DNA of 64,000 nucleotides, taken from NCBI GenBank assembly GCA_951406725.2, contig OX597815.1, positions 21,700,001 to 21,764,000 of the forward strand. The letters are read 5' to 3'. A model generated the notes under the pieces. That model was not told the DNA's origin, searched no databases, and saw nothing but the letters and a program-made list of their open reading frames with translations. Positions 3,640-51,002 of this stretch are shown here, in pieces; the stretch's first letter is position 1; every line of letters begins with the position of its first letter. The position numbers were made by a program, and so were the translations under genes. The stretch comes from Octopus vulgaris. Lineage: Eukaryota.

Positions 3640-4812
3640 AATATCGAACAACAGGGAATGTTTTTTACCTGACCAGACTGAAATTCAAAACAGGTTTTTA
3701 CTTCACGCATTAGGGAACTCTTATACGCTGACGATTGTGACCTAGTGATAATCAATCGCTCTAAAACGGGCCTGCAATCTCTTGTAGCTGCATTTGACAC
3801 AGCTTGTGATAATTTTGGCTTGATCATCAACCTAGAAAAAATGGTTGTAATGTTTCAATTTGTACAAAATAATGGAAATCTGGACACTGAAATACACCTG
3901 CGAATTCAAAGGGCAACACATAAATAACAACACAAAATTGGCTCTTTACAAATCGTTTGTCTTACCATTCTTGTTGTATTCTTCTAGAACATGGACGTGT
4001 TATGAAAGACATTTCAAATTGTTAGAACGATTCGACCAAAAATGTCTTTGCCTCATTTTAAACATTAAACGGTATTTTAAAAAAATTCCAGGCCCAGATG
4101 TCTTTGCGTCTGCAGGCATCACTTCAATTGAATAAATTATTCTGAAAAACCAAATGAGATGGTCTGGTCATATACTTCGAATAGCGGATGAACGCACATT
4201 CAAACAGCCGTTTCATGGCGAGCTTGCAGAGGAAAAACGCAATCGGGTTAAACCTAAAAAGAGGTTTAAGGACGGTATAAGAACTACCATGAAGACACTT
4301 GGAATGGATCTAAAGGCCATAGAAACCTTTGCTCCGGATCGAGCCGGATGGCAAACAAAAGTGTGGGATGGTGTGAAAGCATTTGAGGAGACCAGGATAA
4401 CACATGCAAGACTCTAGAGCGATTAAAGAAGAATGCTGCGATCGAGAAGGCGAATCTCAGTGACCTTTTTGTGTGCACAGTTTGTGACAGACCATGCCTT
4501 TCTTTTGCTGGGCTCAAATCTCATTTGAGAACCCATGAAAAACGAACCTCCACCAACTATTCTCCCTATATATCTCTACACACCTTTCAATACCGTGTAT
4601 GCCATAAAGTTTGAAATTCTAACGAAGGCGTCAAAAGACATTTTAAGATCCACAAAGATCAGAATTTAACTGCAGCTCTTAGTGGTTCAAATCGAATGTG
4701 CAATCTATGTGGATGTCTCTTCAATACATTGTCTTGTTTAAAAAGCCACATCAGACGACACGATGGATCTAAAGTACAGGAGGTGGTCAGACTCTGCATA
4801 AAGAGTAGACAA

Positions 4813-26347: not shown

Positions 26348-26389
<42 letters not shown>

Positions 26390-26393
<4 letters not shown>

Positions 26394-26637
26394 TCAGCAA
26401 TAATTTAGATTCAAATGAATATGGTACTTAATTTAGATGCACCAGAATTCTGTATGGAGTGATTATAATCAAAATAAGCAACAATAATGACTCCGGTAAT
26501 GGAAAACCTCTATAATTGGCTGATGAGTGCTCAGCATTTTAAACTGTTGTAATACTTACAACATTTAATAAAATGATGTAGTACGAAACGATCGTACCAA
26601 ATTACCGGAGTCATTCTTGTTGCTTATTTTGATTATA
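26390..26637 (+). mobile_element. Non-coding hairpin element with a hammerhead in the loop (family 2), inserted in (TA)n
   Basis: Arms of about 37 bp (26464-26500 and 26601-26637) enclose the ribozyme. The leader GAATATGGTACTTAATTTAGATGCACCAGAATT is shared with the 51604 element. Confidence 0.8.
26516..26600 (+). ncRNA. Type I hammerhead ribozyme, canonical core
   Basis: UUGG-CUGAUGA-GUGCU...AGUAC-GAAA-CGAUCG-UA-CCAA. Stem I is UUGG/CCAA, stem II is extended (CAUUUUA/UAAAAUG, UGUUGUAA/UUACAACA), stem III is palindromic and the triplet is GUA. Confidence 0.9.
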
Positions 26638-26679
26638 TATATATATATATGTTTCAGATATGCATTTGAATGCGTTCAT

Positions 26680-49461: not shown

Positions 49462-50160
49462 TGGTTGTCTACTCCTTATGCAGAGTTTGACTATCTCCTA
49501 TACCTACACCTTAGCACCATAATGGCATCTGATGTGGCTTTTTAAACCAGACAATGTTCTGAAAAGACACCCACAAAGATTGCACCTCTGATTTGGACCA
49601 CCAAGAGCTGCAGATAAGTTCTGCTCTTTGTGGATCTTAAAATGTCTTTTGTGGCCTCCGTTGGATTTGCAAACCTTCTGGCATACACTGCATTCAAAGG
49701 TGTGCACAGACATACAGGCAGAATAGTTGGTGGAGGTTTGTTTTCCATGCGTTCGTAGATGAGATTTGAGGTCAGCAAAAGACAGGCATCGTCTGTCACA
49801 GACTGTGCACACAAAAAGGTCATTATCATTCACCTTCTCGATCGTTACATTCTTCCTTAGATCTCTTTTGAGTCTTACTTGCGTTATCCTGGCGTCTTCA
49901 AATGTTTTCACTCTACTCCATACCTTTGTTCGCCATCCAACTCGATCCGAAGCAAGCGTTTCTATATCTTCTGGAATCATTCCAAGTGACTTCATTGTAG
50001 TCCTTATGCTGTCCTTAAACCTTTCTTTAGGTTTACGCCGATAGCGTTTCCCCTCTGCAAGCTTACCATAAAACAGTTGTTTCGGCATGCGAACAATATG
50101 GTCATACTATCTCAATTGGTTCCTCAAAATCATAGCTTTAATTGAGGTGATGCCTTCAGT
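49462..50160 (-). mobile_element. RTE LINE 3' fragment with an open C-terminal ORF carrying three C2H2 zinc fingers
   Basis: ORF 49504-50088: MPKQLFYGKLAEGKR...KERFKDSIRTTMK, then CTVC..HLRTH, CSVC..HFKIH and CNLC..HIRCH. Same family as 3640-4815. Confidence 0.92.
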
Positions 50161-50167
50161 TTCTTCA

Positions 50168-50233
<66 letters not shown>

Positions 50234-50521
50234 TCAATAATAAAGGGTGAAATTAATTAATTAATTTAGAAATAATCATTAATTTCACCAAGTAGAGTTC
50301 GGCATGTAAAAGACCCATTCAAGGAAGGTTTAAGTAATACTAAGTAATTAAGGGTTCAGCAACGATTTGCCTCACCACACACCGAATTTAGAAATAGCAG
50401 TCAAAACGTTTTGGCTAATCTTTCTACTTAAAGGGAGATCCCAGCAAAAACAAAGCACTTAAAAAACAAACAACGCAGGCAAAAGAGAAAGAAATGACGA
50501 AAATCATTCTATATTAAGTTA

Positions 50522-50611
50522 CCTACGGACGCACGTTTCGGAATTAAGTCATAGCAGAGCATAAAAAATAAATAATATGTCTTCCCTGACTATTTTCCTC
50601 CTCAGCGTAGG
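50522..50611 (-). ncRNA. Type I hammerhead ribozyme, intact core
   Basis: Minus strand CCUACG-CUGAGGA-GGAA...UUCC-GAAA-CGUGCG-UC-CGUAGG: 6-bp stem I, long stem II, GUC triplet. Confidence 0.92.
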
Positions 50612-50715
50612 ACTCTTCAATTATAAATAATTGCGTCTAAATTATTAATAATTGTGCATTAAATTTAATACACAATTATTAATAATTGAGACGCAATTAT
50701 TTATAATTGAAGAGT

Positions 50716-50805
50716 CCTACGCCGAGGAAGAAAATAGTCAGGTAAGACATATTATTTATTTTTTATGCTTTGCTATGACTTAATTCCGAAACGTGCGTCC
50801 GTAGG
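50716..50805 (+). ncRNA. Mirror-copy hammerhead with core mutations (probably inactive)
   Basis: CCUACG-CCGAGGA-AGAA...UUCC-GAAA-CGUGCG-UC-CGUAGG. U4 is changed to C and G10.1 to A relative to the minus-strand copy. Confidence 0.8.
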
Positions 50806-51002
50806 TAACTTAATACAGAATGATTTTCGTCATTTCTTTCTCTTTTGCCTGCGTTGTTTGTTTTTTAAGTGCTTTGGTTTTGCTGGGATCTCCCTTTTAA
50901 GTAGAAAGAATAGCCAAAACTTTTTGACTGCTATTTCTAAATTCGGTGTGTGGTGAGGCAAATCGTTGCTGAACCCTTAATTACTTAGTATATATATATA
51001 TA

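Follow-up and report, generated by a model that had tools for sequence, protein, structure and literature searches.

The 248 bp at positions 26390–26637 of the window, the 64-kb stretch of Octopus vulgaris DNA analysed as a whole, are best explained, with considerable probability, as the hammerhead-bearing end of a Hydra-type Penelope-like element (PLE) left behind as a two-armed fragment in a (TA)n microsatellite (Table 1). The hammerhead described in the initial annotation is confirmed, and the link to Penelope-like elements proposed there has turned out to be right, as the motif is the pLTR hammerhead of a many-copy Penelope-like retrotransposon. Membership in this family, the two-arm layout, the fixed outer ends (+41 and +137, counted from the predicted cut site) and the variable inner ends can be read directly from the sequence. 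The copy has no function of its own and is a dead fragment that lacks both a promoter and an ORF. The kind of element and the kind of hammerhead are already known, and what is new is how long helix II and the tail are.

Table 1. Features of the insertion and of its hammerhead; positions are those of the window and element positions (+/−) are counted from the predicted cut site.
Feature	Position	Strand	Description or basis
(TA)n microsatellite, left flank of the insertion site	26350–26389	.	(TA)n-type repeats also flank most family copies
Inverted arm	26390–26500	−	Element +5 to +137 (3' end and ~96-nt tail); alignment to natural copy L031
37-bp arm	26464–26500	−	Inverted duplicate of +5 to +41, pairs with 26601–26637; specific to the 26390–26637 copy
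Junction microhomology TAAT	26497–26500	.	4 nt, between the two arms; alignment to L031
Direct arm	26497–26637	+	Last 141 nt of the pLTR, −100 to +41; alignment to L031
15-nt 'asymmetric bulge'	26501–26515	+	Ordinary element sequence upstream of stem I, unpaired owing to the junction
Type I hammerhead	26516–26600	+	Includes GAA at 26585–26587
Stem I	26516–26519 / 26597–26600	+	TTGG / CCAA, 4 bp
Core CUGAUGA	26520–26526	+
Helix II	26527–26584	+	58 nt here and usually 59 nt in other copies; built of three helices
Helix III, ACGAUCGU	26588–26595	+	True palindrome
(TA)n microsatellite, right flank of the insertion site	26638–26650	.	Sequence

The motif has CUGANGA, GAAA and UH in type I order, together with three helices that close the core (4 bp, a basal 5 bp, and 2 bp in the monomer or 8 bp in the dimer). 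Its core is canonical throughout, as had been annotated; A17 is 26596, which places the predicted cut after A26596 (GUA), between 26596 and 26597. The suggestion that the palindromic stem III suits a dimer agrees with the calculated energies, the duplex reaching −10.0 kcal/mol versus +2.4 kcal/mol for the monomer hairpin. Likewise present is the stem II of about 58 nt in three helices, far longer than usual and built from 5 bp plus 2 bp, then 7–9 bp, then an 8-bp hairpin; its length is kept by family copies. Across 48 of these copies, 93–98% of the cells are paired in each helix. A relaxed type I descriptor finds two hammerheads within the 64-kb window and 229 matches in 0.91 Mb (the window plus fetched loci, which were mostly picked because of their hammerheads) versus 1, 0 and 0 in three block-shuffled controls, so the hammerhead is not a product of chance. 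Rfam detected no hammerhead, neither at the gathering score nor at E up to 10. Because the long helix II hides such ribozymes from Rfam, hammerhead counts in genomes of this kind are probably too low.

A second hammerhead family, F2, is found at 50230–50992 of the window, also as a two-armed palindromic insertion in (TA)n. The core is intact in the minus arm, at 50605 (−), where helix II measures 59 nt and stem I 6 bp, and is changed in the plus arm. F2 yielded 1,602 first-look candidates with a tail of ~127 nt, some of which stand in ~600-nt tandems. A repeat search of the 64-kb window gave output dominated by microsatellites, and 49507–50106 (−), with an inverted copy near 4202–4780, contains a LINE-like ORF end of 200 aa in which C2H2 zinc-finger motifs occur.

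Compared with the natural copy L031, the direct arm is identical save one missing A in helix II, and the inverted arm shows a 22-nt deletion within the tail in the pairwise alignment. A reading of 26390–26460 as the end of an ORF was dropped, this region being inverted tail. Contigs of independent runs continue into ordinary family sequence at 26497 and 26500, where they form loose ends, and DNA-like runs from two organisms cover the element family deeply. The first copy search covered a 2.8-Gb assembly of 227 contigs and gave 1,999 first-look candidates, of which 40 were scored.

The bulge and the ~37-bp arm had been proposed to provide tertiary contacts. As a layout both exist, with 15 unpaired nucleotides and an arm that pairs with a single mismatch, but the proposed role does not hold, as the arm is copy-specific and the junction differs in every copy. 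The first search gave 24 other two-armed copies, none of which shares the junction (the pair of inner ends) that gives the 37-bp arm, and arm and bulge are therefore not an evolved tertiary module; nine of the 24 have no pairing arm because their inverted arm stops at +55 or later. The bulge sequence is also found upstream of the core in family copies without the arm. Judged by these alignments, the arm and the bulge are products of one insertion event, and the large outer hairpin is likely a by-product of insertion.

This copy comparison also bears on the idea of an evolved, efficient ribozyme at this locus, in which the bulge and the 37-bp arm dock on the long helix II. The intact core would agree with such a ribozyme, as would an arm that clamps both strands of the 4-bp stem I and a bulge placed beside stem I, a frequent site of type I contacts according to passages of PMC3088659. 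However, the arm and its junction are absent from all the other two-armed copies, and folding predictions show no gain. A secondary-structure model places the active fold 5.4 kcal/mol above the ensemble when the 37-bp arm is present and 5.5 kcal/mol above it in the native context, and the predicted active-fold share does not increase through the arm. The arm instead displaces a native extension of stem I that is itself weakly predicted, with a pair probability of 0.0 in the window and of about 0.55, or 0.03–0.16, in two native contexts. We consider an evolved ribozyme of this kind very improbable, and return to the insertion of an element fragment as the preferred reading.

The minimum-energy fold of the 248 nt differs from the hammerhead fold drawn in the initial annotation, with the core trapped by two small hairpins, and the z-score of −8.5 for the whole stretch is contributed mostly by the inverted repeat. 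The same model, which omits tertiary energy, puts the active fold of short-helix hammerheads of this genome 5.0 and 6.7 kcal/mol above the ensemble; because these also receive low active-fold shares, it does not rank activity, slow or fast. A family copy of the 50605 (−) hammerhead in its native context reaches the active form more easily in this model, at 3.2 kcal/mol; with its 6-bp stem I, the 50605 (−) hammerhead rivals the one at 26516–26600, which had been annotated as the window's best candidate for activity. Inspection by eye revealed no conserved contact between helix I and loop II. Passages in the literature report that PLE hammerheads cut poorly in vitro. Here, too, any cutting would probably be slow, and would probably take place as a dimer via the palindromic helix III or be helped by the element's protein.

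Contigs of runs guessed to be RNA map to family sequence rather than to the window flanks, and neither a splice joint nor a defined end is visible in them. Splice-like words were noted at L127:1548–1642 and L015:1119–1207: donor-like GGTAAG is seen inside helix II of F2/F2b, donor-like GTAA stands right after stem I in F2, F3 and F4, and an acceptor-like stretch lies just upstream of the family 1 start codon. Introns in the 5' part of PLEs are known.

The parent element is represented by a full pLTR–ORF–pLTR copy, L116 (G000:C14, minus strand), a unit of ~3.5 kb in which two direct repeats of 326 nt, 98.5% identical and each with hammerhead and tail, flank the ORF. The ORF starts 181 nt downstream of the cut site of the upstream pLTR and is broken by frameshifts, across which the motifs DKT, RW, FDI, PMGS, YRxD, CxCx5C, CxxC..E and CxH follow in order, a set that corresponds to the Hydra-clade traits listed in section 11 of PMC8557442. 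Walking upstream from the hammerhead, one meets a 3' UTR of 0.6–1.3 kb, then a C-terminal GIY-YIG-type endonuclease, an Asn-rich linker and the reverse transcriptase (RT). At L088:5718–6707, a long and variable Asn-rich (AAT)n stretch separates RT and endonuclease and is in frame in several copies.

This organization is that of an endonuclease-bearing PLE (EN+), with a single RT and GIY-YIG-type endonuclease ORF between hammerhead-bearing direct pLTRs in L116, and with 5' truncation, an adjacent inverted copy and a tail at one end. The traits of the Hydra clade are present as well: DKT for DKG, an RWK-like motif and a divergent RT4 (ADKTG, FRWI with the K replaced, FDIPMGS), the CxCx5C linker, CxxC and CxH around a conserved E and N, the C-terminal endonuclease and insertion into (TA)n. 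The unit exceeds the length of generally <3 kb that is a tendency of the clade rather than a defining trait. By eye, the ORF resembles the Hydra-clade alignment of PMC8557442. Pfam matched none of four ORF pieces of the element; RT-like Atlas neighbours were found at 0.93–0.96, the nearest clusters carrying RVT_1 or HTH_animal in part of their members. Motifs and by-eye alignment likeness, used in place of a tree, point to a Hydra-clade identity of the element.

A different origin, a short non-autonomous hairpin element (MITE-like or a retrozyme monomer) that moves as a 250-bp unit, would account for the strong hairpin, the TA flanks and the numerous similarly sized copies that the first search gave. 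That search favoured look-alikes, however, and copies chosen by other parts run kilobases into the RT-endonuclease ORF. The inner junctions vary among copies, and instead of the fixed terminal inverted repeats that a MITE has at both ends the inverted repeat is asymmetric and differs from copy to copy. Non-LTR retrozymes consist of non-coding tandem hammerhead monomers, whereas this family has an ORF and the 26390–26637 copy a single hammerhead; arrays of short monomers were not seen for the family, unlike for F2, F2b and F5. Unless many dispersed copies share the exact junction, the full-length L116 refutes a mobile 250-bp hairpin, to which we give next to no credence, and the stretch is again best seen as the truncated end of a coding element. 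Tandem units of ~490–600 nt are included in F2, F2b and F5. Young tandem non-coding retrozyme-like repeats with long-helix-II hammerheads were observed at L177–L201 (unit ~594 nt, 98–99% identical over the query) and L202–L221 (unit ~490 nt).

How such fragments arise was analyzed on the ends of 60 loci picked by the tail alone from >1,000 candidates ranked by identity, a sample in which both query copies and a tandem pair are included. In all 60 the tail arm ends at +136/137 (the tails themselves being the query), 26 loci have an adjacent inverted partner, and 21 of these partners end at +41. Both end points, +41 and +137, fall on TTATA, a match to the (TA)n target. The cut site is read through in 43 of the 60 tail arms and is the end point of 0–1, so uncut RNA is the usual template. 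A footprint of cleavage was not seen at base level, where none of 55 anchored copies ends at +1 and no ends pile up at the cut site; five of the 55 end within −4 to +5 versus 2.5 expected (p = 0.11), in a walk that dropped five copies without an anchor and halts early at double mutations. At the BLAST level, 7 of 60 copies end within −3 to +5, and the end of L287 is by eye compatible with +1. Junctions are apparently in excess inside helix II, an excess that is not statistically significant.

From these end points we infer a twin-priming order of events. The GIY-YIG endonuclease of the element would nick both strands of the (TA)n target, and the RT would start at two places inside the RNA, each with ...UUAUA at its end and potentially able to pair with the target. 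Synthesis of the two cDNAs on uncut element RNA would stop early, and the products would be joined through the 4-nt microhomology. The scheme resembles Poseidon in vitro, for which passages of PMC11167929 describe two internal RT starts, uncut RNA as template and protein-assisted cutting. The intact element carries the same hammerhead in both pLTRs, the upstream one ~180–190 nt before the ORF start, and the ribozyme would trim read-through transcripts. A role of the upstream-pLTR hammerhead in cap-independent translation is possible by analogy with viral 5' UTR hammerheads, which have such a role according to passages of PMC13725137.

The unusual length of helix II is not confined to this copy. 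Helix II measures 55–60 nt in 91 of the 92 aligned rows of the family (some rows being one genomic copy seen via overlapping loci) and 50–70 nt in 8 of the 14 hammerhead clusters among the fetched loci, most of these long-arm clusters having been searched on purpose later, so that their match counts do not equal frequencies. Long arms recur in three protein-coding Hydra-type families and two or three tandem families; the two other coding ones also stand behind Hydra-type endonucleases, ~33% (31–35%) identical to that of the 26390–26637 family. In the literature searched we found no description of arms of 50–70 nt in animal PLEs; such variants may be shown in Lunse et al. 2017 or Arkhipova et al. 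2017 or in their supplements, papers known to us via citing passages. The two other coding families are represented by L147–L176, with a helix II of 53–55 nt, and by L222–L241, with one of 50 nt.

Whether family copies preserve the pairing of stem II depends on the part considered. The basal helix does so, being paired in all 48 aligned copies (rows pre-selected by a pattern that covered it), with G-U and A-U exchanged 29/17 and a U-A, U-G, C-G series of 44/3/1; the copies show consistent changes and one compensatory change. For the far part, covariation is not convincing: in family 1 a double change occurs in 1 of 48 rows, 8 of 48 rows break one of the pairs and 21 of 500 shuffles have a covariation score at least as high, and in family 3 there are no double changes in 22 pairs, a result not above shuffles. 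No alignment was obtained between the far helices of families 1 and 3. The far part of the window copy nevertheless folds with z = −2.7, with 3 of 300 shuffles as good; across representatives it folds better than shuffles in seven of ten (z −2.3 to −4.6) and weakly in three (z −0.2 to −1.7). The family is characterised by a long helix II in which the basal helix needed by the core is kept; the remainder of helix II is most likely an appendage that folds by itself, is tolerated and experiences weak structural constraint.

Mere tolerance fits poorly with the recurrence of long arms in three coding and two or three tandem families. Helix II could instead be a selected domain that either docks the element's RT/endonuclease or acts as a switch controlling cleavage, and that would let non-coding tandem derivatives be recognised. 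Its occurrence across coding families with such divergent endonucleases and in tandem ~490–600-nt repeats speaks for selection, together with the folding of most far parts, two compensatory pairs that separate F2 from F2b, and the Poseidon hammerhead, which cuts only with protein according to passages of PMC11167929. However, the F2/F2b pairs are located in stem I and the basal helix, outside the far part, and the far helices offer the poor covariation, the failed alignment and the three weak representatives described above. On this balance we regard a selected domain as rather unlikely and keep to the tolerated appendage. More speculative still is a scenario in which several unrelated Hydra-type elements in the lineage of this animal and their non-coding riders each grew a helix II of 50–70 nt that binds their own RT/endonuclease and gates cleavage, while both RT start sites pair with the nicked (TA)n; we think it improbable. 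If true, this pairing of the RT starts would account for the long tail, for insertions with two arms and for the fixed position of both ends. The importance of the long helix II is modest; copies that carry it offer natural variants for probing what PLE hammerheads do, and the sharply defined pattern of two ends and two arms supplies genomic evidence that can be used to study PLE integration.

Compared with known systems, the element shares with Hydra-clade PLEs, as described in passages of Craig et al. 2021 (PMC8557442), the C-terminal GIY-YIG-type endonuclease, the CxCx5C linker, CxxC/CxH around E and N, DKT and RW, as well as (TA)n insertion, a type I hammerhead near the 3' end, an inverted 5'-truncated copy and a one-end tail. 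It differs in helix II, 58–59 nt here versus 10–24 nt in the 26 Hydra-clade rows of File S2, in the tail, ~96 nt versus the 30–40 nt described for PLEs, and in a larger unit with an Asn-rich linker and a long 3' UTR, one published clade member having 3,045 bp. The published octopus family Hydra-1_Obim has, by eye, a different hammerhead. The printed precedent for a long arm is PLE-X1_sMoe of spike moss, marked as deviating in File S2, with a helix II of ~53 nt; it is a single plant element without endonuclease, whereas here the long arm recurs in several animal families.

Similarly, type I PLE hammerheads as presented in passages of Cervera and De la Pena 2014 (PMC4209133) have in common with the present one a 4-bp helix I, the G10.1-C11.1 pair, a palindromic helix III, the location in the pLTR, many solo and opposite-strand copies and an expected slow, dimeric cleavage. 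The present hammerhead, unlike those, has no bulged base between A9 and G10.1. Helices II called long in the printed passages otherwise have 6–8 bp (PMC13725137; 'larger than usual' in PMC4209133), versus ~22 bp in three segments here.

The in vitro work on Poseidon of Anolis (Frangieh et al. 2024, PMC11167929) provides a close parallel for the insertion, with two internal RT starts that define the tail, an AT-rich target cut on both strands and an uncut template. In the passages concerned, the Poseidon RT start lacks homology with the target and the start codon lies within reach of the hammerhead, which overlaps it, whereas here both ends fall on sequence that matches (TA)n and the ribozyme lies well upstream of the ORF. 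Animal non-LTR retrozymes, finally, carry type I hammerheads in PLE-linked repeats (passages of PMC7229834 and bioRxiv 10.64898/2026.07.22.740005), a description that fits the tandem F2, F2b and F5; in contrast to the tandem non-coding monomers of retrozymes (PMC7229834), the 26390–26637 family is the protein-coding element itself.
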